Positions 1 through 20,530 are shown, numbered from the stretch's first letter. The stretch is 64,000 nt of DNA from Dehalococcoidia bacterium (GCA_965219085.1 OZ244720.1:352001-416000); one strand, 5' to 3'. Made by a program: numbers and translations. Notes: generated from the sequence alone by a model not told the origin.

Positions 1-3000
1 ACGGTTTCGCCGCTCGTGTCGGTGGGCGCGCTCCAGACGACCGTCAACGACTGGTCGCCCGGCGTCAGTGAATCAATCGTGGCAGCGGCGGGTGTGCCGG
101 GGATTCCGATCACGCTGTCCGACCAGAGGCCGTCGCCGTCGTTGTTGACCGCCCGCACCTGCACGTCGTACGGGACCAAACCGCTGAGGCCGCTGATGGT
201 GTGCGCCAAGCCTTCCCCCGAATTCGTTGTCCATACGTCCGCTACAACGGTCCAGTTCGTGTCTACGGATTCGTCGGCGTCGGACTCGATGTAACGCAGG
301 TCGTAGGCGGTCAGGTCAGACGCGCCGACGTTGGCCGGGGCGGTCCAGGCCACGCTGAGCGCGTAGTCGCTGCTGCTCAGCGACGTAATCGCGGGGCGGC
401 CGGGAGAGCGCCTGTGGCCGTACACCGTCAGGCGCCAGGAAGTCAGGCTGGCGGTTGTCCCGCCTGTCAAGCGGTCGCTGACTCGCAGTTTCCAGTCGCC
501 GGCCGGGTCCTCACCAAGATGCCGAGCCGACCCGAAACGGAACTCGCCATTCAGACTACAGGCGCCACCACCCAGGAAGGCGGAAAGCCTCGCGCATTCG
601 CCGCTGGACCCGAGCGCCTTGGTCAACCGGGATACCGCGCCCGATGGCGAGACCAACTCCACACGCAGGTCGCGGAAGACCGGCGCCTCCAGGGTGACAT
701 CTATCGCGACGAACTCGGTGAACTGGATCTCTGGGCCCATGCTGATGCTGGTCTCGACCGTGGTAGGCGTGCCCGAGGACGGGTTGGGAATCGCCAGATC
801 GACAACGCCCGACTCTTCAGACATGGCAACAAAGTCCGCAAGCCGAGTCCAGTTGTCGGCCAGATCCATCGCCGCCTTGGCATCCACGACGCCGAAGCCG
901 TATTCGCGGTTGAAGTCGTAGTGCTCGGTCGTCGACCCGTACTCGAGTGCGCCCTGTTTCCAGCCGCTGTTTGTCGAGTCGTTCTTTCGCGCGGAGCCGG
1001 CAAGGATGAGCTTGACGTCCCGCCAGGTTAAGTCGTTGTGAGCGGCTCGCAACAGCGCGGCGACGCCGGAGACGATCGGGGCTGACACGGAAGTCCCGTT
1101 GAACTCTCGCGTATAGCCACTACCGCTGGTGGTGGTGGTGACTTCCTCATCGGAGACCCCGGGATCAGCGGACGGTGCGCAAACCCAAAGGTTGGCTCCG
1201 GTTTCCGAATACCCCGCCCGATCCCCTTTGTCGTTGACTGCGCAGACAGCGGTGGAACTGTAGTGGTTGGCGTATTCGTTGAGATTGGCGTACCCGCCGA
1301 TCCGATGAGCGTTGCCGGCTGCCCACACATAGAAGACGCCCTTGCCCCCGTAACCTTCAGTCACCCCCCGCTCCACGGCCAGCTCCCAGATCGCGGGTGC
1401 ATGAGCGTAGCCCCGTCCCCGCGTCGGACCCCAGCTGTTGTTGGAGACAGCGGTTGTGTCCATCGCGCGAGTCATCGCATCTGCTGTGTTCTGATCGGTC
1501 CGGTCCTCGGTCAGGTTGAGGCCGTAGATCTTCGACCGAGGCGCGACGCCTCTGACCCCAATCTCGTTGGCTGCTGCGGCGATGATGCCCGCCACGTTCG
1601 TGCCGTGGGAGAAGTCGGGGTCATCCAAGCCCAGCACGGCGGTGTAGTCGTGGTTGAGGTCGGCGATGACGTTGGCCTTCAGGTCCTTGTGCGTGTAATC
1701 CAGACCGTCGTCGACCACCGCTACGGTCGCGCCGTCCCCCAGCTTGCCGGCCGCCCACACCGCTTCCACGTTGATGTCTTCGCCCGCCGTGCCATCGAAT
1801 TGACCCGTGTTGCGCAAGTGCCACTGACAACCGAAGAGCGGGTCGCTGAGAGCAGTGGCGATCACCATGCAGGCGTCGAGAGAACTGTCGTAAGAGATCG
1901 CGTCAGTCAGGAGCACGACATAGCGTCCCGTTGCGCTGCCGCTTCCCTCAGCGGAGCTGGTCAGCTTCAGATAGTGGGTGCCGGCGTCGAGCCGATCCAG
2001 CAGCGTGACGGCGATGGTGTCGCCCTGGCCGTAGATGTCCGAGAACAGGTTTGCGTCGACCGCTTGGCCGTCCTCATCAAGCAAGGTCGCAGCGAGATCG
2101 ACTGCTGCTCCCGCGGCGGAGATACGGACGTGCATGGCCGCGTCCGTTTCGATTTGGAAGTAGTCGGCATCAGTGGCCGGATCGATGGCGCCTGAGACGG
2201 GTCGACCGAAAGGCAACGGCAGTGCAGTCTCCTTCGTGCCGCCGGGCTCTGTCACCTGTTCCAGACCTACGACGTATCCGCCGACCTGTGCGCCCGCTGC
2301 TGTCACTTTGAGGTAATATGTCCCCGCGTCGAGGGTGACCAGGGCCAGGAAGCTGGTACCCGGGAGGCTTAGCTCCTCGACATCGGAGACTGGCTCGACG
2401 GCGCTGTTGAGCAGCGAGCCCGTCGCATTGACAGCGCCGCTGGCATAGGCGATCAGCGTCGTCTGCTCACTCAGGGTGAACGTGTACCAGTCCTCATCGC
2501 TTCCCTGATCGATGATCCCGGTTCGGACAGCGGCGACTTCGATGGATTGGGCATCGGTCCGGGCGGTCGTGTCGACAATCGTCTCGGTGTGCAGGACGTA
2601 GCTACCCGTCGCGCCTCCATAGCTCGTGACTCTCACGTAGTAAGTCCCGGCATCCAGGGATGTTCCGATCAGGAAGTTCCCTCTTCCCGATGCGATGTTG
2701 CCGTCGTCATTCTCCAGAATCAGTTCGCCGTCCGCGTCCAGCAACTCACCCACGCTGTCCAGATCGCCGCTGGCGCGAATGACGATTCCGGTCGCCGTCG
2801 TCAGTTCGAATTTGAACAGATCGGCGTCGGTCGCCCGCTCAATCATCCCTCCCAGCGGCGTGTTCAGCGGCAGGGTCGAGGATGTGATCAGGGCGCCGCC
2901 AGGTTCAGCGGGTGTGACGCTGGATGTCGCGGACCAGGCCCCCGCGGCTCCGGCGAACGCGCGGAGCTGCACATCGTAGCTCGTGCTGTTGCTGAGTCCG

Positions 3001-3323
3001 GGCAGGACATAGAGCAACGGGCCGCTGCTCCAGATACCCGCAACGACGGTCCAGTTGGCGTCGCTCGTCTCATCGTCCGCGGTGGCGATGTAACGCAGGT
3101 CGTAGGCGGTGATCCCGGTGACGCCGGCGGGCGCCGTCCAGGCGATGGTCAATGATTCGTCACCTGGGGTCACGGAGGTGATGTTGGGGGCAGCGACGGG
3201 CGACTGCGCTCCTGCGTCGCCGGCCATGAATACGATCGCCAGCAGTGCGGCCAACAGCAAGCGGCCGCTCATCAACGCGGTATTCGCAGCGGGCGGCGCC
3301 CGCAGGGTCGTTGTCCTTCTCAA
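1..3323 (-). CDS. Secreted kexin/furin-like S8 serine protease with FN3, PPC-like and P-domains (3' end runs off window)
   Basis: Not in the ORF track (consistent with no stop in the window); translated by hand at several in-frame points: signal MSGRLLLAALLAIVFMAGDAGAQ (ATG 3272, or TTG 3323 overlapping the upstream stop), FN3 (AWTAP..AYDLRY), DPLFGCQWHL, triad VAVVDDG / SHGTNVAG / NGTSVSAP, oxyanion AAGN, P-domain (LVSPSG..GEDPAGDWKL), more FN3. Confidence 0.9.
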   Translation of the reverse strand, partial: MRRTTTLRAPPAANTALMSGRLLLAALLAIVFMAGDAGAQSPVAAPNITSVTPGDESLTIAWTAPAGVTGITAYDLRYIATADDETSDANWTVVAGIWSSGPLLYVLPGLSNSTSYDVQLRAFAGAAGAWSATSSVTPAEPGGALITSSTLPLNTPLGGMIERATDADLFKFELTTATGIVIRASGDLDSVGELLDADGELILENDDGNIASGRGNFLIGTSLDAGTYYVRVTSYGGATGSYVLHTETIVDTTARTDAQSIEVAAVRTGIIDQGSDEDWYTFTLSEQTTLIAYASGAVNATGSLLNSAVEPVSDVEELSLPGTSFLALVTLDAGTYYLKVTAAGAQVGGYVVGLEQVTEPGGTKETALPLPFGRPVSGAIDPATDADYFQIETDAAMHVRISAAGAAVDLAATLLDEDGQAVDANLFSDIYGQGDTIAVTLLDRLDAGTHYLKLTSSAEGSGSATGRYVVLLTDAISYDSSLDACMVIATALSDPLFGCQWHLRNTGQFDGTAGEDINVEAVWAAGKLGDGATVAVVDDGLDYTHKDLKANVIADLNHDYTAVLGLDDPDFSHGTNVAGIIAAAANEIGVRGVAPRSKIYGLNLTEDRTDQNTADAMTRAMDTTAVSNNSWGPTRGRGYAHAPAIWELAVERGVTEGYGGKGVFYVWAAGNAHRIGGYANLNEYANHYSSTAVCAVNDKGDRAGYSETGANLWVCAPSADPGVSDEEVTTTTSGSGYTREFNGTSVSAPIVSGVAALLRAAHNDLTWRDVKLILAGSARKNDSTNSGWKQGALEYGSTTEHYDFNREYGFGVVDAKAAMDLADNWTRLADFVAMSEESGVVDLAIPNPSSGTPTTVETSISMGPEIQFTEFVAIDVTLEAPVFRDLRVELVSPSGAVSRLTKALGSSGECARLSAFLGGGACSLNGEFRFGSARHLGEDPAGDWKLRVSDRLTGGTTASLTSWRLTVYGHRRSPGRPAITSLSSSDYALSVAWTAPANVGASDLTAYDLRYIESDADESVDTNWTVVADVWTTNSGEGLAHTISGLSGLVPYDVQVRAVNNDGDGLWSDSVIGIPGTPAAATIDSLTPGDQSLTVVWSAPTDTSGET

Positions 3324-5281
3324 TAGAGTGTGCTCTCAGTCCACCAGTTGGGGCTGGAGAGCACCACACCGTCCTGGCCGGTCAGCGCGTTTGCCAGGTC
3401 GAGCGAGGGGAAGCCCGGCTCGGTGTCGACGAAGAACCCATTCGGCAGCCAGCCGAGTTCCGATACCCGGCTCACGCCGATCTGATTGCGGACGAAGAAG
3501 TCGTCCACGGCGGCCTGGTCCCAGGCAGCGTCGAACACCAGCAGCACACCGCCGGGCAGCGTCATCAAGGCCCCGGACGGGGAGCGAAACACCGGGAACC
3601 CGCCACTCTTCTGAGCGGTATTGCTGCCGATGTCGCTTCTGACGATCGTCTCTCGCGAACTGATGCCGCCGTCTTTCGTCACGGTCAAATCCACTTGCAA
3701 CCGTGCCTGCAGCGTGCGATCGCCGTCGTCCCAGGTGTAGACGGCGCCCTGGCTCGACGGAAACGCCTCGAGTGTGGGTTGGGTGTTGGAGTCGGGAGTA
3801 TCGGTCTGGTCGCTTATCCCCTCTGGTTCCGACTGATCGACGGGGTCGGGCGGCAGCCTCAGCGCGGCCCGATTGGAGGCGCGGCTCTTCTCAGCGCCGC
3901 GCAGGGCCTTGACTTCGTAGCGGTAGGTCTCGCCCGCCTGAGTCGCGCCGGCGTCGATGTAGCTGGTGGCCACTGAGGCGCTGTTGGCCGGCAGCGTGGT
4001 CAACTGGCCCTGTCCGACGGCGCGCAGGACCTCGTAGCCGGTGACCCTGTCGGCGTCCTCCGCAGGGGCGCTCCAGCTCAGGTCGACCCCGCCGCCGTCA
4101 ACCGCCTCGGCGGTGAGGTCCGACGGGGCAAGGTCAACGGCGTCATGGGGGAGTTGGACCCGGGCCTGGCCGGACGCCTGGCTCCGGTCCTCGCCCCGGA
4201 TGGCCTTGACCTTATAGGCGTAGGTCTCCCCCGCCTCGGTTGCGGTGGTGTCGGTGTAGGCGGTCGCCGTGTTCCCGGTGTCGTCAACCAGGGTGGCAAG
4301 CTCCCCCTCGCCCACGGCGCGCAGTATCTCGTAGCCGGTGACGCTGCCGGCGTCCTCCGCCGGGGCGGTCCAGCTCAGACGAACGGAGGTTGAGGCGGTG
4401 GTGGTGGGGTCCTCCCCCACCAGCACCAGAGACGCGGTCAGGACCACGGCGGTCAGGCCGGTGGGGGCCAAGTCGACGGGGTCGTGGGGGACCTGGACCT
4501 GGGCCTGGCCGGATGCGTCGCTCCGGTCCTCCCCCCGGATGGCCTTGACCTGGTAGGCGTAGGTCTCCCCCGCCCCGGTGGCGGTGGCGTCGGTGTAGGT
4601 CGTGGCCGTTGATTCGGTGTCGGCCACCAGCGTCGCCAGGGAACTCTCGCCCTCGTAGGGCCGCCGGCGCAGAATCTCATAGCCGTCCACGGATTCGGCG
4701 TCCTCGTGAGGGGCGGTCCAGCTCAGGGTCACCTTGTTCCCGACCAGGCTGACCGTCAGGCCCGTGGGGGCCAGGTCTTCAGGGGCCGGCGTGGGTACCG
4801 GCTCCGGGGATGGTGTAGGAGTGGGAATGGGAGTGGGTTCCAGGGTCGAATCCGGCGCTGCCGGGGTCTCGGCCTTGACGTAGCCGGACCACTGGCTGAC
4901 GCCGGTGCGGCTGACCGCCTTCGCCCGGTAGATGTAGGTGCTCGACGCCGATACCGTGCCGTCGGTGTAGCTGGTTTCGGGACCGGCGTTGCTCTCGACA
5001 ACGTTGAAGACCTGGGATGCGTCGGTGTCCCGGTTGCGGCGCAGGATGGCGTAGTGGGTGACCGTCTGGTCCGTCGAGGCCATCCAGGTGAGGGTGACCG
5101 AATCGTGTACCGCCGAGGCCTGGACGCTGGTGGGCTTGGCCGGGGGGTTAGCGCCGGTGGCGGCCGCGGTGGCGGTCACCTCCTGGCTCTGGGCGTGAAC
5201 TGTCAGGGCCACGGCCAGGGTCAGGACCGCGAGTCCGGCAAGGAGCAGCAGGAGCGGCGCGAGACGCCGGGAGGCGATCAC
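3320..5281 (-). CDS. Secreted protein with four FN3 repeats and a conserved C-terminal putative S8 propeptide/chaperone-like domain
   Basis: Signal peptide, four LSW.AP..V.GYEILR..YTD..YAYxVKA-type repeats, PT linker; C-terminal ~140 aa homologous to the end of 19232..20377. Confidence 0.85.
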   Translation of the reverse strand: MIASRRLAPLLLLLAGLAVLTLAVALTVHAQSQEVTATAAATGANPPAKPTSVQASAVHDSVTLTWMASTDQTVTHYAILRRNRDTDASQVFNVVESNAGPETSYTDGTVSASSTYIYRAKAVSRTGVSQWSGYVKAETPAAPDSTLEPTPIPTPTPSPEPVPTPAPEDLAPTGLTVSLVGNKVTLSWTAPHEDAESVDGYEILRRRPYEGESSLATLVADTESTATTYTDATATGAGETYAYQVKAIRGEDRSDASGQAQVQVPHDPVDLAPTGLTAVVLTASLVLVGEDPTTTASTSVRLSWTAPAEDAGSVTGYEILRAVGEGELATLVDDTGNTATAYTDTTATEAGETYAYKVKAIRGEDRSQASGQARVQLPHDAVDLAPSDLTAEAVDGGGVDLSWSAPAEDADRVTGYEVLRAVGQGQLTTLPANSASVATSYIDAGATQAGETYRYEVKALRGAEKSRASNRAALRLPPDPVDQSEPEGISDQTDTPDSNTQPTLEAFPSSQGAVYTWDDGDRTLQARLQVDLTVTKDGGISSRETIVRSDIGSNTAQKSGGFPVFRSPSGALMTLPGGVLLVFDAAWDQAAVDDFFVRNQIGVSRVSELGWLPNGFFVDTEPGFPSLDLANALTGQDGVVLSSPNWWTESTLY

Positions 5282-6059: not shown

Positions 6060-6650
6060 ACCCCACGCCGGCCGGCACCGACTCCCGCTCCCGTTCCAGC
6101 GCCCACTCGAAGAGCGAGATGGACGCGGGCGCGGGCCTGCGGCTGCGGCGCCCAGGCTTCGCCGGCTCCTCCGCCATGAACTCCGCCCAGGAGAACAGCG
6201 ATCGCTGCCGCTCCGGGGTGTCGTCGTCACCGGCGTTGCCCCCAACCGGAACGGCGGTATGGCCGTTGCCGTGGGCGTGAACCTCGACGGCCACCGGCTC
6301 CGGCGCAGCCCACTCGGCGTCGACCAGCAGCGCCTCGGCCTCCGCCGCGACCTGCCGCGCCTGGGCGAAGACCGACTCGACCCAGCCGCCGTCTTCCTCG
6401 CCGGCGACGATCTTCCTGGCGAGCGCCAGCATGAGGTCGTCGCCGTCATCGCCGTAGGCGGCGAGCCCGTCCTCGGGCAGCTCGCCCTCGACGGCGAGGG
6501 AGCTTCGCAGCTTCTTCGCCACGAGCTTCAGGGCGTCGGCCCGCAGGGTGCTCCGGTAGGCCATGAAGACAACCTGCACGGGCTGCGTCTGGCCGATCCG
6601 CCAGGACCTGCGTGAGGCCTGCCGCATCGTGTACACGCTGTAATCGGCTC
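6060..6650 (-). pseudogene. C-terminal fragment of an ICE-type helicase
   Basis: YSVYTMRQASRRSWRIGQTQPVQVVFMAY resembles SF2 helicase motif VI; no N-terminus, begins abruptly at the recombinase 3' end. Confidence 0.7.
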
Positions 6651-8225
6651 CGGTTTGGCAATCGACACGAAATCCTCGTCGGCGGGGATGGCGAGCGTGA
6701 GGGTAACGTTGTTCTCGCCGTCGATCGTCGCCTCCTCCAGCAGCAGGTCCAGCACCTCGCGGCGCTCCGAGTCTGGCAGGCCGTCGAGGCCGCCGCCGGC
6801 GCGGCGCGCCCACTCCACGACCTGCTCCACCGCCACGCGCCGGTCGGCCCGCGCCGACGCCCCCGCCCGGAGCTCGTCGAGCCTCGCGCGGAGCCGCTCC
6901 AGCCGCTCGCCGATGAAGCGCCGCTGGTGGTCGAGTTGCTGCTCGCTGATCTTCCCGCTCACGTAGAGCCGGATCGCGCGGTCCTCCTCCGCCTGCACGC
7001 CCGCCAACTCGCGCTCGGTGCGCGCGGCATCGTCCGCCGCCCCGCCGTCCTCGTCCGGGTCCAGCGCCGCCAGCCCGGCCGCGATCAGGTCCGGGTCCTG
7101 GAGCACGCGCCTGACCTCGCCCCAGACCAGCTCCTCGAGCTGCTCGGCGCGGATGAACGGGTGCTCGCGGCAGCGCAGGCGGTAGGGCGCTCCCATCCCG
7201 TAGCAGCGGTAGTAGCGGCGCGGCGTCTTGAGCCTGTACGAGTACGTCTTGCCGCGGCGCCGCGTGCTCTGGCTGCGGACCACGCTGGGACCCATCAGCA
7301 TCCCGCACTCGCTGCAGTGCACGAGGTGCTGGAGCAGGTGGAAGGTCTTCGTGTTGCGCGGCGAGCGCGTCAGCCGCCGCTCGCGCAGCGTCTTCGCCCG
7401 CTCCCACGTCTCCTCGTCCACGAGCGGCGGGAACGGGACGCCGATCCAGGCGTCGCGGGGCTGCGCGTGCACGCGCGTGCCGGCGTCGGTGGCGGTGTGG
7501 CGGGCCTTGCCGTACCACCAGGTGCCCCGGTAGGCCTCATTGCGGAGGATGCGATTGATCTGCGTCGCGTGCCAGCTTGCGCCGGGCCTTGCCGTGGGGA
7601 CGCCGTCGTCCGTGAGCGCCGCGGCGATGGCCGGCGCGCCCAGGCCGTCGTGGACGTAGTGGCGGAAGATGCGGCGGATGACCTCGGCGCGCTCCTCGTC
7701 GACCTCGGGCGTGCGGGCCTCGGCGATGCGGTAGCCGTCGGGGACGTTGCTGACGGGGATGCGGCCCTGCTTGGCGGTGCCGCGCTTGCCCATCGAGGCG
7801 CGTTCGCGGAAGTTGTCGAGCTCGATCTTGCCGATCGCGGCCATGAGGCCGAAGGTCTTCATGTCGATCGCGTCCATGACGGCCTCGAGGCCGATGCCGT
7901 GCGCCTCGACGACCTCCATGAGGGCGGCAGCGGGGTACATGCCGCGGCTGAGGCGGTCGGACTTCCAGCAGACGATGACATCGAAGCGGCCGGAGGCGGC
8001 GTCGGCGAGCATGCGCTGGAACTCGGGGCGGCTCTTGGACCAGCCGCGCCCGACCTCCTGGTAGCGGGCGGTGATCTCAAGCCCGCGCTCCTCGCAGTAG
8101 GCCTCCATGTCGCTGATCTGCTCGCCGAGGGAGGTCTTGTCGTCCTCGGCCTGGCTCTTGTCGGAGACGCGCGCGTAGATGGCGGCGCGGCGTGTCCCGG
8201 GCTGGTGATGGTTCGTTCCCGGCAT
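6528..8225 (-). CDS. Large serine recombinase (resolvase + recombinase + Zn-ribbon domains)
   Basis: AAIYARVS catalytic motif, SRPEFQRML, DRLSR, Zn ribbon CSECG..YYRC, coiled coil; GAAGGAGG RBS before ATG 8225. Confidence 0.93.
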   Translation of the reverse strand: MPGTNHHQPGTRRAAIYARVSDKSQAEDDKTSLGEQISDMEAYCEERGLEITARYQEVGRGWSKSRPEFQRMLADAASGRFDVIVCWKSDRLSRGMYPAAALMEVVEAHGIGLEAVMDAIDMKTFGLMAAIGKIELDNFRERASMGKRGTAKQGRIPVSNVPDGYRIAEARTPEVDEERAEVIRRIFRHYVHDGLGAPAIAAALTDDGVPTARPGASWHATQINRILRNEAYRGTWWYGKARHTATDAGTRVHAQPRDAWIGVPFPPLVDEETWERAKTLRERRLTRSPRNTKTFHLLQHLVHCSECGMLMGPSVVRSQSTRRRGKTYSYRLKTPRRYYRCYGMGAPYRLRCREHPFIRAEQLEELVWGEVRRVLQDPDLIAAGLAALDPDEDGGAADDAARTERELAGVQAEEDRAIRLYVSGKISEQQLDHQRRFIGERLERLRARLDELRAGASARADRRVAVEQVVEWARRAGGGLDGLPDSERREVLDLLLEEATIDGENNVTLTLAIPADEDFVSIAKPEPITACTRCGRPHAGPGGSARRSPCRLSSWPTGAPCGPTP

Positions 8226-8239
8226 GGCTGCCTCCTTCG

Positions 8240-8277
8240 AATACAAACGGACCCGCCTCCCTGCGGGGGCGGGTCCG
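8240..8277 (-). terminator. Terminator-like hairpin directly upstream of the recombinase RBS
   Basis: Minus strand CGGACCCGCCCCC-GCA-GGGAGGCGGGTCCG followed by TTTGTATT, then the RBS. Confidence 0.5.
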
Positions 8278-9347: not shown

Positions 9348-12300
9348 TCAGTTGGCCGCGGCCGGTCCCTCGCTCCTGACAACCAGCGGCGTGAGGGCGG
9401 GCAGGCCGTCGGGGAACAGCTCAACGAAGCTCTCGTTCGCGAACTCCGGCGCCCCGGGGAGGTAGGACACCCACTCGCCGCCGACAAGGACATAGACGGC
9501 CGTGACGTGGCGGCTCTCCGCGCAGGCTACGAGATCCTCAACGCTGCCGCCCTCGAAGACGACGAGGCTGAAGCCGGGGGCGATCTCGCCGCGCAGGCAC
9601 TGCGGCCACGGCTGCCCGGCGGCTTCAAGGTCGCCGCCGAAGGGGTCCGCCGAGGGCGGTCCGTTGCTTGCGGCGAGCAGCGGCGTGATGGAGGGCAGGC
9701 CATCGGCGAACAGCTCGCGGAACGGCTCGTTCACGAAGTCAGGCGCGACGAGGAGGTAGGAGACGTAGACGCCCTCGTGCAGGGCGTAGAAGGCCACGAC
9801 GTCCCGGCGCTCCGCGCAGGCGGAGAGGTCGTCGACGCTGCCGCCCGCGAAGACGACGAGGCTGAAGCCCTCGGAGACGGCGCCGCGCAGGCAGTGTGGC
9901 CAGGGATCGCGGGCCGGGTCCCAGCCCGTCTCGGGGAAGCGCACGCGGTAGGTCTTCGTGCGGCTGTCGTCGGCCGAGGTGACGGTGACGGTGATCGCCT
10001 CGACTCCCTCGAGCGCCACCTGGTGGCCGTTCGCCTCGTTGTCGTCGGCGTCGGGCGGCTCGATGACGACGGTGGTGCGGCGCTGCATGGCCTCGGCCTC
10101 GACCGTCGTCGCCGTCACGCCCTCGTCGGCGACGCCGTCGTACTCCTCGCGGCCAGGCAGGAACTCGCCGATGTCGACGCCGCTCACCGTGAGCGACGCC
10201 AGCCGCGCGTCGATGGCGTCGGGCATGTTGTAGCTGTAGACCTTGTCGTCGCTCGCGTCCGCCACGTACATCACGTCACCGTCGGACCGGATGCCGCGCG
10301 GGCTGTTGTTGCTCGCCTTCGACAGCTCCGTGAACTCCTCGTCGCGGACGCGCTCAAGCTCCTTCCCGTCCGCATCGGCGTCCTCCACGTCCGAGTCCTC
10401 CGCTTCCTCCGGGAGGAGGGGCAGCCGGTAGGCGAAGAGGCGCTTGGCGCCGTCGTCGGAGACCCAGATCGTGACGCCGTCCGACCAGAGGCCGCGGGGG
10501 TCGCCGTTGGCGCTGTCGAGGGCGCACTCGGCGAGCAGCTCGCCGCTGGCGAGGTCGTAGGCGAAGAGGGCGTCGTCGCGGCCATCCAGCACCCACATCG
10601 TCTCGCCGTCGGACCAGATGCCGCGTGGGTCGTCGTTGTCGGGGTGCAGTGCGAAGTCCTCTGCGGCCAGGCGCTCGCCTGTGGCGAGGTCGTGGGCGAA
10701 GAGCTTGTCGCGGCCGCTGTCGGAGACCCAGATCACCGTGCCGTCCGACCAGAGGCCGCGCGGCGCGCGGTTGCGCTCGTCGAGCGCGAACTCGCGCTCC
10801 TCGACGCGTTCGCCCGTCTCGAGGTCGTAGGCGTAGACGCCGTCGCCGGCGCCGTCGGGGTTGTTGGCCACCCACAGCGTCTCGCCGTCGGACCAGACGC
10901 CGGTGGCGGCCGCGTTGGCGGCGGCGAGCGCCTCGATGTCGTGCTTCACGGTCCACTCGAAGTCGAGCTCGCTGGGCGAGGGACCGTAGGGCCCGCCGCC
11001 GCCGCCCGTGGGGCCGGGGCCGCCGGTGGGGCCGGCCGTGACGGTGATGGTCACCGCGACGTTCGCCGTGGCTCCGTTTTGGTCTTCGGCAGTGACAGTG
11101 ACCTCGTACGTGTCCTTCGACGCGATCTCGAAAGTGACGCCATCGCCAACCGTGATCTGACCGCTGTACAGATCGATGTCGAAGAAGGGCGCCTCACTCC
11201 CGAAGAGGCTGTACGTGAGCGTGTCACTGTCGTCGGCGTCGGTGGCCGTGACGGGAGCGCCGACCGTATCTCCTTCCCCGGCGCTAGCGGAGACGGAACG
11301 CTCGGCGGTGGCTGCCGGAAACTCGGGCCGGTCGTTCACCGGCCGGACGGTGACATTAACCGTGGCGGCGGCGGAGTAGAGGGCGCCATCGAACACCCGG
11401 TAGGTGAAGCTGTCCGCCCCGTGGTAGTCGGCGTTGGGCGTGTAGGTGATGGCGTTCGTCGCAGCATTGACCTCCGCGACGCCGTTGGCCGGCGGCGTGC
11501 GCACCGAGACGGTCAGGGTGTTGTTGGGATCGTCCTCGTCGGGGTCGTCGTCGTTCGCGATGACGTCGACGGTCAGCTCCATGTCCTCGTCGGTCGTACC
11601 CGAATCGTCCACAGCCTCCGGAGCCTCGTTCACGTCCGTGACGCTGATGCTGACGAAGATGATGGCCGATGCATTGGAGGGATCGGTGGCGGTCACCGTG
11701 ACGAAGTACACGGTTCCCGCCTCGTGATTGAGTGCCGCGCCCCGCGCGACCCGGATCTGGCCATCGTCGTCGATCGTGAAGGGGTCCGCAGCGAGCGCGT
11801 AGGTCAGCGTGTCGTCGTTGGCATCGGTGGCGCTGACCGGGTCGCCGACAGGCGTTCCCTCGGCCGCGTTCTCGGCGATGGAGCGCTCCGCCGTGGAGCC
11901 GGGGAACTCCGGTGGGTAGTTCACCGGGGGCGGCTCCTCGACGCGGTCGTCCGCCCTCTTCTGGATGCGCTTGTCTGGGCCGTGGCCGTCGGTGTAGTCG
12001 ACCGTCACCCGCAGGTAGTGGTTCAGGTCGGCATCGACCGGCGTGTAGCGCTCGCTCGCGCCGCCGCCGATCTCGCTCCAGGTGCAGGGTGGCCGTGAGG
12101 ACGGTCCCCACCAGCGGCTGCTCAGAGGAGAGGCCGAGCGTGCCCGGCTCCTCCTCGTTCGTGACGGTCACCATCACGTCGTGCGTCTCCATGTTCGAGC
12201 CGTCGGAGGCGCGCAGCCTCACCGAGTACTCGTTGTTGCGCCCTACGTCCGTCGGGGACTCGTAGTCCGGCGCCGCCTTGAACGCGAGCCTGCCGTTCGA

Positions 12301-12496
12301 GGAGGTGAACTCGAACCTGTCGCCGTCGCTCCCGCCGAGCGGTTGCCAGGCGATGGTGTCGCCCTCCGGGTCGCTGGCCCGGTACGTCCCGACGAGGAGC
12401 GAACCCTCCTCCTTGATGCCGGGAGTCGCGTCGCCGTTGATGGTGGGCGGCTCGTTGACGGGTCTGACCGTTACGGTGATGTCGATGCTGCCCCTA
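9348..12496 (-). pseudogene. 3' part of giant S8 protease-adhesin: cadherin/Ig-like repeats, WSDG propeller, beta-sandwich, duplicated C-terminal domain
   Basis: Continues the frame of 13679..19235 once IS5 is removed (AEDSAGL-RGSIDITVTVRPVNEP); additional frameshift near 12085; ORF 9348..12008 carries cadherin motifs (PVSATDAND, TDVNEAP). Confidence 0.85.
9360..11025 (-). repeat. Copy A of ~1.65-kb paralogous C-terminal module (inverted relative to copy B)
   Basis: GGPGPTGGGGGP..DFEWTVKHDIEAL..RSEGP nearly co-linear with 24125..25800. Confidence 0.9.
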
Positions 12497-13678
12497 GGGA
12501 TGGTCTGAACAACTCGCCTGAGCGGGTGAGCAGATGCGATCATGGGGCGACCCGGAGAGGGGCGCCCCATGCAGCAGCGTTCGTTCGGCAGCGTCGAGTA
12601 CGAGCACAAGAAGGTCAAGACGAGGCGGCAGGCGTTCCTCGAGCGCATGGACAGGCTCGTCCCCTGGGCTGAGCTGGAGCAGCGCATCGCGCCCGTCTAC
12701 CCGAAGCCGGGCCGCGGGCGCCGCCCCTACCCGCTGCGCGTGATGCTGCGCATCCACTGCCTCCAACTCTGGTTCAACCTCAGCGACCCTGGCATGGAGC
12801 AGGAACTCTACGACTCCCGTTCGATGCTCGAGTTCGCCGGTCTCAGCCTCTCCGAGCCGATTCCCGATGAGACGACGATCCTCAACTTCCGCCATCTGCT
12901 GGAGCGTCATCAGCTGGGAACGGCGCTGTTCGCGACGATCAACGCGCACCTCGCACGGCAGGGGCTGCAGGTGCGCGAGGGCACGATCGTGGACTCCACG
13001 ATCATCAGCGCGCCGTCATCGACGAAGAACCGCGAGCGTGCGCGCGACCCCGAGATGCACCAGACCAGAAAGGGCCGGCAGTGGTACTTCGGGATGAAGC
13101 TGCACACCGGCACGGATGCGCGGACGGGACTGGTCCACAGCGTGAGCACGACGGCGGCGAACGTCTCCGACGTGACCGAGGCGCATCACCTCTTGCACGG
13201 CGGCGAGACGGAGGCGTGGGGCGACGCCGGCTACCAGGGAGTGGAGAAGCGCCCGGAGCACGCGGGGTCGGAGGTGAGCTGGCAGGTGGCGCTGCGTCCG
13301 GGTCTCAGGCGGCAGCTGGCGCCGGGGGGCGCTGAGGCGCAGGCGGAGCGGCGCAAGGCCTCGGTGCGAGCGAAGGTTGAGCATCCGTTTCTCTACGTGA
13401 AGCGGCACTTCGGGTACGCGAAGGTCCGCTACCGGGGTCTTGAGAAGAACCGCGAGCGTCTCACGCTGCTGCTCGGTTTCACGAACCTGTTGCGAGCCGA
13501 GCCTCAGCTCGCGTGATCGCGGGAGCCGTGCGTCCCGAATCGCCCGCCGGAGCGCTTCCGGAGCGACATGGAGGCGAGACCACCCATGGACCGCGGTATC
13601 GGCCCCCGCAGCGCAGCGCAGCGCAGTACGCCGATCGACCCGCACCGCGCCCGATACGCCACCTGTTCAGACCATCCC
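12497..13678 (+). mobile_element. IS5-family insertion sequence
   Basis: Terminal inverted repeats GGGATGGTCTGAACA / TGTTCAGACCATCCC, TA on both flanks (CTAG/CTAA context). Confidence 0.95.
12542..13516 (+). CDS. IS5-family DDE transposase
   Basis: MLRIHCLQLWFNLSD, IPDETTILNFRH, IVDSTII, WYFGMKLH, GDAGYQG, RAKVEHPF. True start may be the second ATG (MQQRSF). Confidence 0.95.
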   Translation: MGRPGEGRPMQQRSFGSVEYEHKKVKTRRQAFLERMDRLVPWAELEQRIAPVYPKPGRGRRPYPLRVMLRIHCLQLWFNLSDPGMEQELYDSRSMLEFAGLSLSEPIPDETTILNFRHLLERHQLGTALFATINAHLARQGLQVREGTIVDSTIISAPSSTKNRERARDPEMHQTRKGRQWYFGMKLHTGTDARTGLVHSVSTTAANVSDVTEAHHLLHGGETEAWGDAGYQGVEKRPEHAGSEVSWQVALRPGLRRQLAPGGAEAQAERRKASVRAKVEHPFLYVKRHFGYAKVRYRGLEKNRERLTLLLGFTNLLRAEPQLA

Positions 13679-16600
13679 TAAGGCCCGCGCTGTCCTCGGC
13701 GCGCACCGTGATGTCGTAGACGTTGTCCCGCCCGGAGTCGGCCGGGTTGTCGGCGTCGGGGATGTTCTTGAACGCAAGCACGCCGGCCTCGCCGAGGTTG
13801 AAGTCGCCCGCGTCGGTTCCCGCCAGCGACCAGGTGTAGGTGAGGCCCGGCTCGTTCTCGGGGTCGCGTGCGCTGAAGGCGGCAAGCGTTCCGTCGTAGT
13901 TCTCGTCGACCGCGATGTCGTCCGCGGGGGTGATCTCCGGCGGTTCGTTGACGTCGCTGACCGTGACGGTCACGTCGAGGCGCCCGCTGAGGCTACCGTC
14001 GGACGCTTCGACGGTGACCTCGTAGTCGTTGTTTCCGTCCGAGTCGGCCCGCGCATCGTAGTCGGGGGGCTGGTCGAAGCTGAGCACGCCGCCGGAGATG
14101 GAGAAGTGACTCCGGTCGTCTCCCGAGAGTGACCACTCGACCGGCGCCTCCTCCGGATCGCTGGCGCGGTAGGTGGCCACGGAGGTCGTTGCGTTCTCCC
14201 GATAGTCCCTGGCCTCCGGCCCCGCGATGGCCGGCGGTTCGTCGAGGTCGGTGACGTGAATCTGCACGGTCGTGACGACCGGGCCGTCGGTGTCCGTGGC
14301 GGTGACGGTCACGCTGTGGCTGCCCTGTTCCTCGTGGTTGAAGGTTGCGCCCGCCTTCGTGCTCAGCTGGCCCGTCGCCTCGTCGAGGTCGAACGAGGCG
14401 GCGTCGGCGCCGCCGAGCGTGTAGCCGACCGCGCCATCGCTCGCCACGGGCGCGACCGGCGGCCCCAGGTCCACGACCCCGGCCGTGTTCTCGACGAGAC
14501 TGCGCGTGGTCTCGACCGACTGGAGCGTGAAGGTGAGGCCGGCGATCCGCTCGGTGGTGAACTTGCCCGTGCCGCGGATGCTCGTGATGACACCGCGCGT
14601 GGTGTCGACGCTGGGTTCGAGCGAGAAGTCGTCGCCCTCCTCGGTGCCGGCATCCCAGGGATAGAGCGGCAGCTCGTGCGAGCGCAGCCAGAGACCGGAG
14701 GCGTTGAGCAGCGGCAGACCGGAGACGCCGACGAACCAGTCGTGGCTGGGCGCGATCATGGTCGTCAGCGTGACCCGCGGGTGCGAGCCGGCGAGTTCGG
14801 CGGTCAGCGTCTTCGCGGTCGTCGGCCCGATGTTGTCGGTGTCGCCAACCAGGACCCCGAGCGCGTTCGCGCCGGCGTTCTGGACCTCGTCTCGCAGGCC
14901 CGTCCAGCCCCCGACCTCCGCCATCGACTCGACACCCGCACTGGCCCTCCCGCCGCTCTCGAGGAAGCTCACGCCGGCGTTGTGGACGCCGCCGATCAGG
15001 CGCGAGAAGTGCGCGCCCGAGGGCAGGCCCGCGGGCGTCACGGCGGTCCTCCAGTCACCCTGGAAGCGGATGCTGTAGGTCGCCGTGGAGGCGAACGGGG
15101 CGGACGGATCGCTTACCGCCGGCGTGAGCGACAGGTCTTCTTTGGTGCGCGTCACCGTGACGCGGTAGGTCCGCGTCGTGGTGCCGTCCTCGGCCGTCAC
15201 CCGTACCCGGATCACGTTCTCCCCGACCGACAGGTCGGCCTGGAAGCCGTTTGCGCTATCGGCGTCGGCGTCGCTGAGTGACATGCCGTTACCGTCGAGG
15301 TACGCGACTGTGGCGTCGCCGTCGCTCCGCGCCGCCTCGACCGTGACCCGCCGCACCGTGTACCCCACGGCCGCCGCGTACTCGGTCGTCTCGCTCGCGA
15401 ACGCGGGCGCCAGCCGCACCCCGGGCAGCTGCAGGCCGCTGAGCGTGGCATCCTCCGAGGGGAGGGTCTGGCCGGTGCCGCTGGCCGACCAGAGGCCCGC
15501 GCCGACCGTGTTCAGCGCCCGCACCTGCACGTCGTAGCCGGCGCCGTCCTCGAGGCCGGTGATGGTTGCGCGGAGGGTGTCGCCGGGGGTCCATGCGACC
15601 GGGGCGGGAGACCACCGGGCGGCGCTCTTGTCCGCGGCGTCGCTGCGGATGTACTGCATGGCATAGGAGCTGATGGCCGCGCCGACGCCGCCGGCGGGCG
15701 CGCTCCACGCGACCGTGAGACTGCGCCGGCCCCCGCTCACCGTCTCGACCGCCGGCGCCCCCGGCACCGTGCGCGGGGTTCCCTCGGATATCGCCGACCA
15801 GTCGCCCGCCCCGACCCGGTTGACCGCCCGCACCTGCACGTCGTAGGAGACGCCGTTGCTCAGTCCCGTGAGCCTGTGTTCGAGCGCGCCTGACGTCCAC
15901 GCGCCGGCGGAGGGAGTCCAGTTGGCGTCCACGGTCTCGTCGGCGCTGGTCGCGATCGAGCGCACGTCGTAGGAGGTGATCGCCGCCCCGCCGTCGTGGG
16001 CCGGCGCTGTCCAGTTCAGCTTGAGCGCGGCGTTGCCGGGTTCGACCTGCGTAATCGCGGGCGCCTCCGGCGCGACCGCCTCGGTCGCCGCCTCCAGGCT
16101 CTCCGACCAGGGACCGGGGCCGGCCTCATTGACCGCCCGCAGCTGCAGTTCGTAGCGCCCGCCCGCGACCAACCCCTCGAGCTGATACGACAACGATAAC
16201 GATCCCGAGGACCAGACGCCGCTCCGCTCCGTCCACCCGCCGCCCTCCGCCTGGCCCGCCGCGTCGCTGCGCCGGTAGCGCAGGTCGTAGGAGCTGACGG
16301 CCGTTGCGCCGGTGTCGGTCGGCGCCTCCCAGACGACGAGGATCGCACGGTCGCGGGCCGCGACCGCGCGCAGCTCGGCGAAGCCCGGGTTGTAGCCGTG
16401 GCCGTAGGCGGTCAGCTTCCAGGAATGGAGTGTTGCGGGACCAACGACTCCCTCGTTGACGATTTCCAGGGTCCATTCGCCGGCCGCGTTCTCGCCCAGG
16501 TGCTTGGCCGAACCGAAGCGCGGCGTCGCCTTCACCCAGGGCTCGATCTCACCTCTGATGGTGAGCGGAAAGACGAGGGTGGATGTCTCCCCGCTGGGAG

Positions 16601-19235
16601 AGGTCAGCTTGATCCGCAGATGCCGGTAGTAGAGGTGGCTGATTTCGAGTTCGACGGCGACGAACTCGACGAAGTCCACATGGGGATCGAGCGTGATGCT
16701 GCTGCTACCGGTCTCGCCGCTGCCAAACACGATCTGCTCGTTGGAGGTCGCGCTGAGTTCGCGCCAGGCGGGCGGGCTGGTCCAGTCGTCGGCCAGCGCC
16801 ATCGCCGCCCCGGCGTCGACCACGCCGAAGCCGTAACTGTGGCTGAACCAGTAACGCTCGTCGGTCGAGCCGTACTTCAGCGCGCCCTCTTCCCAGTGGC
16901 TGTGTCCAGGGTCGTTGCGGCGCGCCGAGCCGGCCAGGATCAGCTTCAGATCGCGCCAGCTCAGCTCGCGATGGGCGGCGCGCAGCAGCGCCGCCACCCC
17001 GGCGACAATCGGCGCCGTGGCCGAGGTCCCGCCGAAGATATGTGTGTAGCGATTGGAGTTGTCAGTCGTGGTGATTCGCGGGAGAAAGCTGAAACCGCCG
17101 GGCGAGGACGGAGCGCAGACCCAGAGGTTGGCGCCCAGCTCCGAGTAGCCCGACCGCGCGTCTAGGTAATCGACGGCGCAGGCCGCCGTGATCCCGTAGT
17201 GATTCGCCTTTGAGTCATAGTTGGCGGTGTCGCCAAAAGCGGAGCCGTTGCCGGCGGCCCAGACGTAGAAAACGCCCTTGCCGCCGTAGCCTTCGTGCAC
17301 CCCGCGCTCGACCGCCATCTCCCAGGGCCTCCCCGCGTAGTGGTACTGGCCATTGTCCTCGAAACCGTAACTGTGGTTCGAGACCGCGACCTCCGCCATC
17401 TGGTGCACCAGCGCGTCGATCCGATCCGCCCCTGTGCCCAGCAGCGCGCGATAGCTGTAGAGCGTCGCTCTGGGCGCGATTCCGCGAACGCCGAGGGCGT
17501 TGTCGCGGGCGCCGATCACGCCGCCCACATACGTGGAATGCCAGTCGGTCCTGCTATCCCAGGGCACCTCCGGCGTGTAGTCGTGACTGCCCTCCAGGCT
17601 GATGTTTGCGCTCAGGTCTTCGTGATCGAGGTCCAGCCCATCGTCGACCACGGCCACGTTGACGCCCGCGCCCTTGTTGGTCGCCCAGATCTCCTCGACA
17701 TTGATGTCCTGCCCCGCTCCACGGCCGTACTGCCCGGTGTTGTTGAGGTACCACTGGCAGCCGTACAGGGGGTCGCTCTGTGAGGAGCCGCGGGACAGGC
17801 AGTCCCGCTCCATTTCTCTCGTCTCCGGATCGAGCTGGGCCGCGAGCGTGTACGCTTCTGTCCGATCGCCGCTCATCGTCACGCGCAGGTGGTAGACGCC
17901 CGCGCCCAGGCGGATCATGCTCGCGACGCTGGATGGGCCCAGTGCATATAAGCCGCAGCCTATCCCCCGCGTGACGCTGATCCCGACGGGGTTCCCGTCC
18001 GCGTCGGACAGCGCCATGTTGAGCCGGAACCGCTCGCGGTCGAATTTGAGGGCGCATAGCGTCACTTCGCCAGGCGTGGGCACGCTGAGGCTGAAGTAGT
18101 CTTCGTCGCCGGCCGGTTCGATCCGGCCGGCTGCCGGCAGGTCGAACCTGAGTGGGGTGGCGGCAGCGATCGAGTCGCCGGGATCGCCCGCCGCCGCCGT
18201 GTAGAGGATGTAGGGCCCCTCCTCTCGGGCAGCGAAGCCCTCGACCCGGATGTAATAGGTACCCGCATCAACTTGTGCGCGAAGGTTGAACCCGAGGTAG
18301 TTCCCGGGCAGCGAGCCGTCGTCTGAATCGGCGATCGGTTCGTCGTCGGCGTCATATAGCCCGCCCACCGTATCGGTCGCGCCGATCGACATCACCCAGA
18401 GGTCGGTGGCTTCGGTCAGCACAATCCTGAATCGGTCGACCCAACCGTTCCGGACCAGGCGAGCAGGCGTCAGCGAGCCCAGCTCGACCCTCTTCGAGGT
18501 GCTGCTGCCCACGGCCTGCACCGCGGCGGCGTGCAGCCGGTAGTCGACCGGCGCTGCGCCCTGTTGGCCGCGAACGATCACGTAGTAGGTTCCGGCGTCA
18601 ACTACCTCGCGCAAAGAGAAGTTGCGCGGATTGGGCGGCAGCTGGCCGTCGCCATTCGAATGCAACACCGTGCCGCCTCGGGTCAGTTCGCCCGCGGTAT
18701 CTGCCTCGCCCGTCGTATAGAGCCACAGATCGGTCTGCTCTTGGAGTACGATCCTGAAGCGATCCTCGTCGCCGCCGGTGTCGATCCGTCCCGGGAGTGA
18801 CCTACCCAGCGCCAGCTTCGTGGCCGTCGCGTCGGTGCCGCCGTGGTCGCTGGTCGACGCCGATGTCGTGGCCGACCACTCGCCGGGACCGACGCTGTTG
18901 ACGGCCCGCAGCCGCACGTCGTAGGCGACCCCGTCCAGCAGCTCCGCGAGCGTGTAGCTGAGTTCGCCATCGCTCCAGACGCGCGTCACGAGTGTCCACT
19001 TGTCATCGGCCTTGTCCGTCGCGGCGCTCTCGATGTAGTGCAGGTCGTAGAACGTGATCGGTGAGTCGCCGTCACTCGCCGGCACGGTCCAGCCGACGCT
19101 GAGCGAGTTCGTCGTGGCCGTCAGCATGATCCCGGTCGGCGCCGCCGGCACGGCCTGGGCGCGCGCCTCATTGGCCGCCACCCAAGCCACCAGCGCGCAG
19201 GCAATGATGACCGCGACCGCGACCCAAGCTCTCAT
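13679..19235 (-). pseudogene. 5' part of giant secreted kexin-like S8 protease-adhesin (FN3, PPC-like, S8, P-domain, FN3 x3, beta-sandwich, Spondin_N, cadherins), interrupted by IS5
   Basis: ATG 19235 (MRAWVAVAVIIACALVAW) overlaps the upstream stop; VAVVDDG / WHSTYVGG / GGTSATAP; MIAPSHDWFVG..YPWDAGT spondin motif; frame reads into IS5 and stops at 13479. Confidence 0.9.
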
Positions 19236-20377
19236 CGCAGCGTGATCTGCGATCGCCAGTTGGGACTGGCGATCAGCACGCCGTCCTGCTCGGCCAGCGC
19301 GTTGGCCAGCTCCAGCGAGGCCCAGCCGGGCTCGGTCGCAACCAGGAAGGCGTTGTCGGCGAAGGCCTGCGCCGTGACGCGGTCCGGCTTGATCGCGTTG
19401 ACCGAAAAGAAGCGGTTGATCCGGGTCTCGTCCCAACCCGGATCGAGCACCAGCAGCACACCGCCGGGCAGCGTCACGAGCGATCCGCCTTCATTTCGGA
19501 AGACCGGCGGCCCGCCCTCGGCGTGCCGCGCGCGGCGCTCGACGATGCTCTCGCGCCCGTCGTCGTGCAGGACCACATCGTCCTTGGCGTTCGCGCTGCT
19601 GCGCTGCAGGACGAGGTGGGGCTGCAGCCGGGCGCGCCTCGTGCGGTCGCCGTCCCGCCAGGTGTAGGGCACGCCCGCGTCAGCGTCCGTCGGCGCCGGC
19701 TTGGAGACGGTTGTCGCGTTCCCGGCCGGATCGGCGGGCGCCTGCCGGGCGCCCCCGCTCGGCGCGCGGGCCCCGCTGGGCGCGGCGGGCCGCTCCGTGC
19801 CTGCGGAGGACGCAGGCGTGCCCGAGGCGTCGGCCTCCGGGGACGGAGTGGTGGCGCTCGCCGTAGCTGGAGCAGGGGTGGTCGCCGCGGCTGGCGTAGG
19901 GGCGGTCGGCGTGGTGGCGGTTGCCGTGGCCGGACTGGTGGCGGTTGCCGCGGCTGGCGTGGTGGCGGTTGCCGCAGCTGGCGTGGTGGCGGTCGCCGTG
20001 GCCGGACTGGTGGCGGTTGCCGCGGCCGGACTGGTGGCGGTCGCCGTGACGGGAGCGGTGGTGGTCGCCGGCTGTGAGCGCGCCCCGACCGCGGCCTGCG
20101 TCGCGATTACGGCGGGGCTGGCGGTCTCCGCGGTCGCGGGGCTGCCCGCATGGGGCTCGCGCACTCCGCCGTCTCCACAGGCGAGGAGGACCGCTGCCCA
20201 CACGGCCAGCAGCACAAGCGCCGACCCGCCGGCCCCCGGGGCAGGCCAGCGCCACGCTGGCGGAAGACGGCGTGGGATCGGCGGCCGACGCCGTGCCGCG
20301 CGCCGTATGCCCACCGCCGGCACAGCGTCACCCGCCTGGCGGACGCCCCCTCCGAGAAGTGCTCGCATCCCGTGCAT
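19232..20377 (-). CDS. Lipoprotein with Thr/Ala/Pro stalk and conserved C-terminal putative S8 propeptide/chaperone-like domain
   Basis: Lipobox VLLA-C, TATATSPA repeats, C-terminal YTWRDGDRT..PVFR..TLPGGVLLVLD..SLELANAL..SPNWRSQITLR. Start codon uncertain. Confidence 0.8.
   Translation of the reverse strand: MHGMRALLGGGVRQAGDAVPAVGIRRAARRRPPIPRRLPPAWRWPAPGAGGSALVLLAVWAAVLLACGDGGVREPHAGSPATAETASPAVIATQAAVGARSQPATTTAPVTATATSPAAATATSPATATATTPAAATATTPAAATATSPATATATTPTAPTPAAATTPAPATASATTPSPEADASGTPASSAGTERPAAPSGARAPSGGARQAPADPAGNATTVSKPAPTDADAGVPYTWRDGDRTRRARLQPHLVLQRSSANAKDDVVLHDDGRESIVERRARHAEGGPPVFRNEGGSLVTLPGGVLLVLDPGWDETRINRFFSVNAIKPDRVTAQAFADNAFLVATEPGWASLELANALAEQDGVLIASPNWRSQITLR
19903..20048 (-). 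repeat. Coding 24-bp tandem repeat, about 6 copies ([T/A]ATAT[S/T]PA)
   Basis: Visible in both translation and DNA (GTGGCGGT[T/C]GCCG units). Confidence 0.85.
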
Positions 20378-20530
20378 CGGCCATAGGGAGCGCGGGGCGC
20401 GGGGAGGGTGTCAATGGGATAAGGGGGCTTGGTCAACAGCGCCGAACACGAGCGTGGAGGCGACCGTCCGTGGCGGCTCCCGCCGCGCTCCGGGCGTCGT
20501 GACGCGCGCGCTCACCGACGGTGCATGCAC

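Follow-up and report, generated by a model that had tools for sequence, protein, structure and literature searches.

A prodomain-like module encoded upstream of kexin-like subtilases in a Dehalococcoidia bacterium: a candidate propeptide supplied in trans

Kexin/furin-type subtilases have an acidic S1 pocket, which in furin is formed by D258, D301 and D306. The pairing of one bacterial kexin-like protease, the Aeromonas sobria serine protease ASP, with the protein ORF2 is reportedly the subject of a structural paper by Kobayashi et al. 2015 (J Biol Chem 290:11130). According to PMC5638518, maturation of the kexin-like ASP depends on the protein encoded by the neighbouring gene orf2. The same source places the C-terminal Lys of ORF2 at the ASP catalytic centre and presents ORF2 as both a chaperone and a temporary inhibitor. 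The principle of a stop codon replacing a cleavage site, with the terminal residue in S1, is therefore already known in one system. Our literature search returned papers on ASP/ORF2 only and none on the family described here. We analyzed a stretch of 64,000 nucleotides from a Dehalococcoidia bacterium (GCA_965219085.1 OZ244720.1:352001-416000, hereafter the window), in which two genes for kexin-like subtilases each follow a gene for an exported partner protein. That each partner ends in a propeptide acting in trans and stopping at P1 is well supported. The C-terminal ~145 residues of the partner would be the propeptide of the downstream protease, and this explanation taken whole, with chaperone and inhibitor roles and a permissive rule for the last residue, is the best we have and is probably correct.

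The module and the proteases downstream

The two pairs comprise the following features:

3320..5281, minus strand: partner 1, 653 amino acids plus stop; signal peptide, four fn3 domains (the Pfam family found), linker and C-terminal prodomain-like module (3742-3323)
3323..3346, minus strand: partner 1 tail, WWTESTLY, in which seven residues ending in Tyr follow the invariant Trp; TGA stop at 3322-3320
3355-3320, minus strand: partner 1 C-terminus, SPNWWTESTLY plus stop
1..3323, minus strand: protease 1, a kexin-like subtilase whose frame continues beyond the first position of the window
1278..1436, minus strand: S1-pocket segments of protease 1, SWGPTR at 1436-1419 and GNAHRIGGYANLN at 1316-1278
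19232..20377, minus strand: partner 2, up to 381 amino acids, true start uncertain, no Pfam family
19235..19258, minus strand: partner 2 tail, WRSQITLR, in which seven residues ending in Arg follow the invariant Trp; TGA stop at 19234-19232
19267-19232, minus strand: partner 2 C-terminus, SPNWRSQITLR plus stop
13479..19235, minus strand: protease 2, whose ATG overlaps the partner 2 stop as ATGA
17214..17372, minus strand: S1-pocket segments of protease 2, SYGFED at 17372-17355 and GNGSAFGDTANYD at 17252-17214

Protease 1 starts either with a TTG at 3323 that overlaps the partner 1 stop (TTGA) or with an ATG at 3272. It consists of a signal peptide, fn3, three PPC-like repeats, the S8 catalytic domain (~1739-960), a P domain (~713-426) and more fn3. 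Protease 2 runs from a signal peptide through fn3, three PPC-like repeats, S8 (~17672-16905) and P domain (~16667-16410) to fn3, cadherin-like, Spond_N and cadherin domains. Pfam found fn3, PPC, Peptidase_S8 and P_proprotein in both (Peptidase_S8 4.6e-42 and P_proprotein 2.6e-13 for protease 1; 5.6e-33 and 2.2e-16 for protease 2). In HMMER searches of solved chains, the best relatives of both were kexin and furin (2.5e-41 and 1.4e-37 for protease 1; 8.1e-49 and 4.8e-43 for protease 2). The motifs VVDDG, HGT/HST, GNx and GTS supply the Asp-His-Ser triad in subtilase order and the oxyanion Asn. The P (homo-B) domain lies directly 3' of the catalytic domain, and the kexin and furin alignments extend through it.

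HMMER set SYGFEDNGQ / GNGSAFGDTANYD of protease 2 opposite SWGPADDGR / GNGGTRGDNCNYD of kexin, which gives protease 2 an Asp at all three furin columns (258, 301, 306). For protease 1, swgptrg / gnahriggyanln fell opposite swgpedd / gnggrehdscncd of furin; SWGPTR and GNAHRIGGYANLN place R at column 258, G at 301 and N at 306, and this S1 pocket is not acidic. We take furin numbering to be the chain index plus 107, an assumed offset that is consistent with the oxyanion Asn landing at 295. The first-pass annotation, made from the sequence alone, had located these four protease motifs and both partner tails and had aligned the pockets with furin by eye; all six lie on the minus strand where it put them, and HMMER reproduced its alignment.

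Where is the propeptide of these enzymes? Pfam detected no prodomain family in either protease, and the catalytic domain follows the PPC repeats too closely to accommodate one: the stretch from signal peptide to catalytic domain is filled by fn3 and the three PPC-like repeats. The module homologous to prodomains is encoded in the upstream gene and not in the protease polypeptide. In partner 2 it follows a hydrophobic leader with a lipobox-like LLAC and a Pro/Thr/Ala-rich linker (module at 19675-19235). It is the only part common to partners 1 and 2 (45% identity over 146 residues, E 1e-36). In both partners the final ~140 residues drew no Pfam match (E<=0.01), and the ~145-residue module is unannotated.

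The association with proteases is tight. The genome of the window holds 11 copies of the module, 10 of them distinct, and each of the 11 has a same-strand protease catalytic domain 1.2-1.5 kb downstream; the genome also holds 16 matches to the catalytic domain (15 full length and one partial), five proteases being without a partner. Among the 136 pairs collected at that stage, the protease open frame began within 60 nucleotides of the partner stop or overlapped it in 95, and 32 of those 95 junctions were 4-nucleotide NTGA overlaps. The combination typical of ASP-ORF2, a propeptide-less kexin-like protease beside a co-oriented partner gene, is found here.

The origin of the module is indicated by homologues in which it has remained in one chain with the protease. 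A profile of the module (A1) matched the domain immediately N-terminal to S8 in one long frame at three loci (L113-L115, E 5e-13 to 6e-14). Closer homologues are fused via PPC domains to S8 and P domains (P0128, P0133, P0144, P0145, P0152, P0226, L022, L032, L044, L145, L146). Both kinds put the module N-terminal to the catalytic domain. The family thus comprises directly cis-linked forms, cis forms separated by other domains and trans forms. In five of the fused forms (P0128, P0133, P0144, L032, L044) the residue seven places after the invariant Trp (W+7) is R or K, and the chain goes on as Q(D/E)PGE without a second signal peptide. W+7 is the exact C-terminus of all 133 unfused proteins (130 by script and three PDW variants by eye) among the 139 newly returned representatives that we read, and of 146 of the 160 instances in the loci collected at that stage. 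The tail consensus, W-x-x-E-x-T-[TP]-[KR], is monobasic. That the stop codon stands in place of the propeptide cleavage site, as first proposed from the two window tails, is supported by the homology to cis prodomains, the W+7 ends, the R/K at W+7 of fused forms and the docking model described next.

We predicted the structure of the partner 2 module with AlphaFold2. The model (predicted local distance difference test, pLDDT, 89.8; predicted template-modelling score, pTM, 0.78) has a beta subdomain followed by a beta-alpha-beta-beta-alpha-beta subdomain. Its best structural match among 48,161 chains was the furin-bound PC1/3 prodomain (9fid; Z 6.4-6.5, root-mean-square deviation 3.5, 71-72 residues aligned), an alignment that covers the C-terminal subdomain up to the last residue of the prodomain. 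The ORF2 chain 3wqb_B aligned over model residues 1-147 and both subdomains (Z 5.9, root-mean-square deviation 3.5, 91/99 residues). Subtilisin, PCSK9 and fungal prodomains and POIA1 matched more weakly (Z 4.6-5.0; 1v5i_B 4.7, 3bgo_P 4.8).

We also modelled the complex of pair 1, combining the catalytic and P domains of the protease (501 amino acids) with the 146-residue module in three runs and three controls. Each of the three runs reached an ipSAE score of 0.92, versus 0.00 in the best of the 3 controls, with contact agreement of at least 89% and a partner pLDDT of at least 80; the pass mark is reached by 116/157 solved complexes and 2/215 mismatched pairs. Partner residues 136-146, the whole SPNWWTESTLY tail, are predicted to lie within the confident interface. 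On the protease side (construct numbering) they face D53/54, H88, S145-156 (the SWGPTR rim), 183-186 (with the oxyanion Asn) and G258-S260 (GTS). In the model W146 and G147 of the protease pair with partner residues 144-145, which is the predicted register for partner residue 146, the Tyr, as P1.

Several results weigh against a trans propeptide. At E<=10, Pfam found Inhibitor_I9, S8_pro-domain, Fervidolysin_NPro-like or ORF_2_N in 0/71 members of the family, and the PF22148 and PF18492 profiles had no match in the genome at the same threshold. The A1 profile searched against PDB sequences returned no solved prodomain or ORF2, just two chance-level rows. The Z scores of 4.6-6.5 tie, within 1 Z unit, with RRM and ribosomal protein S6 folds, and Foldseek against the PDB gave nothing at E<=0.001 for the module model; because of these two results the fold evidence is supportive, not decisive. 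Furin-prodomain and ASP-ORF2 complexes are already solved, so the docking pass may reflect likeness only and is no proof of binding. The equivalents of 301 and 306 (G192 and N197 of the construct) are not among the confident contacts. Four of the 10 distinct copies in the genome are truncated remnants, and 19/240 module instances have no S8 gene downstream within the locus: at L144 a Diphthami_syn_2/AraC-type protein follows the partner gene, at L149 an IS21 IstB and at L046 a Peptidase_M19, and at L166, the sole E-tailed locus reached, an FMN-dependent dehydrogenase.

One lead points to known prodomain families. A language-model search returned clusters carrying Fervidolysin_NPro-like and ORF_2_N at scores of 0.95-0.88; in those at Atlas feature similarity 0.95 and 0.93, 11% of members carry PF22148. 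We treat this as a lead only.

Taken together, we consider the module a trans-encoded propeptide of the same kind as ASP-ORF2, because it is homologous to cis prodomains, lies next to the protease gene, ends at W+7, has a predicted fold that resembles solved prodomains at modest Z, and is predicted to dock in the cleft. The partner gene would encode an exported protein with a signal peptide or lipoprotein-type leader and variable fn3 or low-complexity linkers. The protease would be made without a propeptide of its own, its catalytic domain coming after the signal peptide, fn3 and three PPC-like repeats, and the module would bind that domain once both proteins are exported. The seven-residue tail would then lie along the substrate cleft in the manner of a product, its C-terminal residue in S1 and the stop codon standing at the position of the cis cleavage site. 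By analogy with Aeromonas ORF2 and ASP, the module may serve as a folding chaperone and a temporary inhibitor.

A different role for the partner, that of a dedicated surface-anchored inhibitor or docking protein akin to stand-alone I9 inhibitors and dispensable for folding, is unlikely: the free-standing propeptide-like inhibitor POIA1 is among the structural matches, many partners have lipoprotein-type leaders (87/253 by a rough regular expression) or fn3 arrays, and orphan partner genes occur without an adjacent S8 gene, but these proteases are without any other prodomain, which subtilases generally need to fold, and a propeptide origin agrees with the close coupling in operons and with the existence of cis-fused homologues.

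Terminal residues and S1 pockets

If the last residue of the module occupies S1, how is it related to the pocket? The first-pass annotation had claimed that the two co-vary, Arg going with an acidic pocket and Tyr with a non-acidic one. Two window pairs alone cannot exceed chance for such an association. We therefore gathered pairs from the genome of the window, its genus and five other genome sets; a scan of metagenome contigs contributed 8 loci only. From 240 module instances, 8 fused, 7 without the stop at W+7, 19 without a downstream S8, 11 with a partial protease only and 11 duplicates were left out, and with profile hidden Markov model (HMM) match columns 185 distinct pairs were retained. 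Their tails end in K (99), R (66), Q (12), Y (2), N (2) and T, H, S and M (one each). Overall, K or R is last in about 85-90% of pairs, and non-basic tails account for 11-19% of members.

The raw association is strong. Column 258 is acidic in 121/165 pairs with K/R tails and in 3/20 with non-basic tails (Fisher p 5.7e-7, uncorrected and with related rows), and all three columns are acidic in 105/165 and 2/20 (Fisher p 4.1e-6, likewise uncorrected and with related rows). In other words, all three acids are present in 107/185 pairs, 105 of these 107 being K/R-tailed, and 18/20 non-basic tails go with pockets missing at least one acid. Earlier, smaller sets gave an acidic 258 in 84/114 versus 1/14 and then in 88/118 versus 3/18. 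MAFFT columns on nearly the same data weakened the contrast (121/166 K/R versus 6/18 non-basic, p 0.002); the non-basic acidic-258 calls had shifted from 3/18 to 6/18, and for this reason we replaced the MAFFT columns by the profile-HMM columns.

These rows are related, however. After taking out the S1 columns, we built a tree of 184 catalytic domains (IQ-TREE, quick, LG+G4). The tail class changes at least 12 times on it, yet only 6 independent pairs fall on supported branches. In these 6 contrasts the pocket changed the same way in ~1.7, the opposite way in 0.2 and not at all in 4.1; nothing was significant (median sign-test p 1), and earlier trees gave the same outcome. A cruder test (parsimony, midpoint root, binomial on branch length) found 9/12 tail changes on branches already non-acidic at 258, which make up 37% of the tree length (P 0.009); for the state 'not all three acidic' the figures were 10/12 versus 48% (P 0.015). 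The claimed co-variation over many pairs is thus only partly supported: it stands as a raw association and is not significant in the independent contrasts, which are too few. Cognate-specific pairing, also claimed at first, is not established, given the dependence on alignment, the small number of contrasts and counter-examples in both directions.

We considered two accounts of the non-basic tails. The first is cognate co-evolution: the tail would report the P1 preference of its enzyme, and protease 1 would be a kexin-fold enzyme now preferring an aromatic P1. The closest relatives of partner 1 speak for it, since L011 and L013 end TESTTR with pockets E-D-E and D-D-E while partner 1 ends TESTLY with R-G-N. 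Tyr arose twice in the genome of the window (own0, own1), both times with N at column 306 and with R or H at 258, and three distinct proteins retain the Y tail: partner 1, P0122 and P0123 (the last two also ending TESTLY). L157 (Q tail, Q-G-D pocket) stands beside L153 (R tail, D-E-D pocket). The fused form L146 has Asp at W+7 opposite Arg at column 306, a possible charge reversal, but L145 has Val at W+7 despite an Arg at 306. Other exceptions lie in both directions. A non-acidic 258 accompanies 44/165 K/R tails (L073, for example, pairs a V-A-N pocket with a K tail), N, Q and R tails sit on one D-D-E pocket in the orthologous 4-nucleotide-overlap operons L175, L176 and L177, and L193 (Q tail) and L196 (K tail) have the same G-D-S pocket. 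By eye, K and R tails alternate among close relatives with identical pockets. With the non-significant contrasts and the MAFFT count added, we hold strict co-evolution to be possible but doubtful; judging by its pocket and tail, protease 1 may have switched to an aromatic P1.

The second account is drift under relaxed constraint in expanded or decaying paralogues, pocket and tail both wandering. The genome of the window has 11 partner copies versus 1-6 in the other genomes searched; three of its four truncated remnants carry T, H and S tails, and the loci contain or adjoin insertion sequence (IS) copies and a 10.2-kb duplication. The tail class differs between the near-identical orthologues L175 and L177 (tree distance 0.03), and the downstream proteases of L017, L028 and L053 have lost the oxyanion Asn. 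Against drift, triad and oxyanion motifs are preserved in protease 1 and most non-basic pairs, and partner 1, which is not truncated, shares its Y tail with P0122 and P0123. Restricted to intact partners whose proteases keep the oxyanion Asn, the association remains (258 acidic in 80/102 versus 3/13). Q is strongly over-represented, with 12/20 of the non-basic locus tails, and N and Q together make up 14/25 of the non-basic representatives, which also include five E-tailed and one D-tailed; this excess is unlike the expectation from random drift. Drift, too, is possible but doubtful. Judged by sequence, the non-basic tails may mark either new specificities or relaxed constraint.

The best-supported summary of these alignments appears to be that a fully acidic pocket goes with K/R and that non-basic tails are nearly confined to pockets already short of an acid, while loss of an acid does not force a non-basic tail. 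The rule is likely to be one-directional: pockets that have lost an acid allow non-basic tails, with no strict pairing. Within the trans-propeptide reading, K or R would prevail as the last residue because the ancestral enzyme was kexin-like with an acidic S1. After a pocket loses at least one of its three acids, the last residue would be free, or selected, to change to Q, N, Y or others, and the relation of tail to pocket would be permissive.

Distribution and genomic surroundings

A scan of 1.84 billion representative proteins gave 962 matches to the module at E<=0.001 and 307 at E<=1e-30. No Pfam domain was found on any of the 120 homologues listed, and the few source names among those listed all read 'hypothetical protein'. 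A scan of one genome per species gave 245 relatives, the best 80 of which come from genomes labelled Dehalococcoidia, Acidimicrobiia, Holophagales, Binatia, 'Candidatus Multivorans' and others; many host genomes carry the labels of sponge-associated lineages. Modules 51-65% identical to partner 1 over the best aligned segment occur in genomes labelled as at least six different higher taxa (loci L011-L090), and within the genus of the window the module is present in only 9/18 other genomes. So scattered an occurrence suggests that the module has moved horizontally between sponge-associated bacteria that live together.

Some loci depart from the usual layout. The four remnants in the genome of the window, at 654, 596, 632 and 684 kb, are 5'-truncated or frame-broken (open frames of 114, 60, 214 and 72 amino acids); all retain an SPNW-type tail and precede intact-looking proteases. 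At L017, L028 and L053 the first downstream protease (~8.1-8.5 kb) looks like a pseudo-protease because GGG or G-G replaces its oxyanion GNG, and a second kexin-like catalytic domain lies at ~11.2 kb, ~3 kb beyond the first. At L024 (7268-12424) the partner gene is followed by a 1719-residue protein with Trypsin_2 (S1 family), Big_9 and PKD domains and by no S8.

An IS copy at 12494-13680 (DDE_Tnp_1 and DUF772 transposase, open reading frame 12530-13513, plus strand) overruns the protease 2 gene at its 3' end, the final ~66 codons of that gene reading into the IS; at least 8 further copies lie elsewhere in the genome at 95-97% identity. Window positions 12088-22275 (10.2 kb), with the IS, protease 2, partner 2 and a LysR gene, are an inverted segmental duplication of genome 852997-863184 at 99.7% identity, and pair 2 therefore occurs twice in the genome. 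Between the two pairs lie a large serine recombinase at 6531-8300 (Resolvase, Recombinase and Zn_ribbon_recom domains) and a cadherin/Big_9 protein at 9351-12167, which has a 98.7% copy at genome 811569-814287 and may represent a C-terminal portion that the IS has cut off from protease 2. G+C content is 64.5% in window 1-4000, the protease 1 region, versus 68-71% in the remaining window.

The pair 1 junction was recovered in DNA runs of two other studies, one contig covering 2851-3762 with the Tyr and stop codons free of listed differences. In a sponge metatranscriptome run one 179-nucleotide contig fell on protease 1 (2343-2521, one difference), and the remaining contigs from RNA runs matched fn3 repeats with many differences. 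These RNA contigs are thin evidence and do not demonstrate transcription of pair 1.

Comparison with described systems

The reading proposed here assigns a function to a module without a Pfam family that is found in 962 representative clusters and flanks giant surface proteases of uncultured genomes. Strict co-variation of tail and pocket is not established, but the non-basic-tailed members are candidates for kexin-fold enzymes with altered P1 specificity and are of interest for protease engineering. A bolder idea, which we regard as rather improbable, is that the family forms a natural library of orthogonal propeptide-protease pairs, with up to eleven paralogues per genome that have diversified S1 pockets and whose accepted P1 (Arg, Lys, Gln, Asn, Tyr, Glu) is written at the upstream stop codon. 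If true, specificity could be read from sequence and the paralogues would be kept from cross-inhibition.

The predicted fold of the module is of the same beta-alpha-beta-beta-alpha-beta class as that of the I9-type inhibitors (POIA1, yeast PBI2) and the propeptide of subtilisin BPN', in which the C-terminal tail inhibits, as it would in the module; the BPN' propeptide ends in a Tyr that occupies S1. The I9-type inhibitors differ in that they are not encoded beside a cognate propeptide-less protease and have no sequence similarity to the module by Pfam or by the A1 profile against the PDB.

Furin, PC1/3 and kexin have catalytic and P domains homologous to those of the window proteases and a basic residue before the break, and the PC1/3 prodomain is the best structural match to the module. 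Here, however, the prodomain would be a separate gene product, and therefore no autocleavage would be needed. The tail is monobasic and not R-X-K/R-R, and the module has an extra N-terminal beta subdomain and matches no Pfam prodomain model.

ASP-ORF2 offers the fullest likeness. In both systems a propeptide-less, kexin-like bacterial subtilase with a P domain has a partner encoded by a neighbouring gene, and for ASP that partner is described as a chaperone and temporary inhibitor with its C-terminal basic residue at the catalytic centre. Both proteases are related in sequence to the ASP chains 3hjr and 3wqb (E 1e-34, 1e-31), and ORF2 aligns over both subdomains of the module model. There are also differences. 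The module has no detectable sequence homology to ORF2 in profile or ORF_2_N/PF18492 searches. Its gene lies upstream, whereas the ORF2 gene lies downstream of ASP in that account. It belongs to uncultured genomes of several phyla and not to Aeromonas, Vibrio or Shewanella, and it makes up the C-terminus of larger exported proteins that carry fn3 arrays or lipoprotein linkers. Unlike ORF2, it has a tail fixed at Trp plus seven residues and non-basic in a minority of members, and its family has kept the cis forms beside the trans one. With the break of the trans form falling exactly at the predicted cleavage site, the family would offer a clean example from nature of a gene split where its product is processed.

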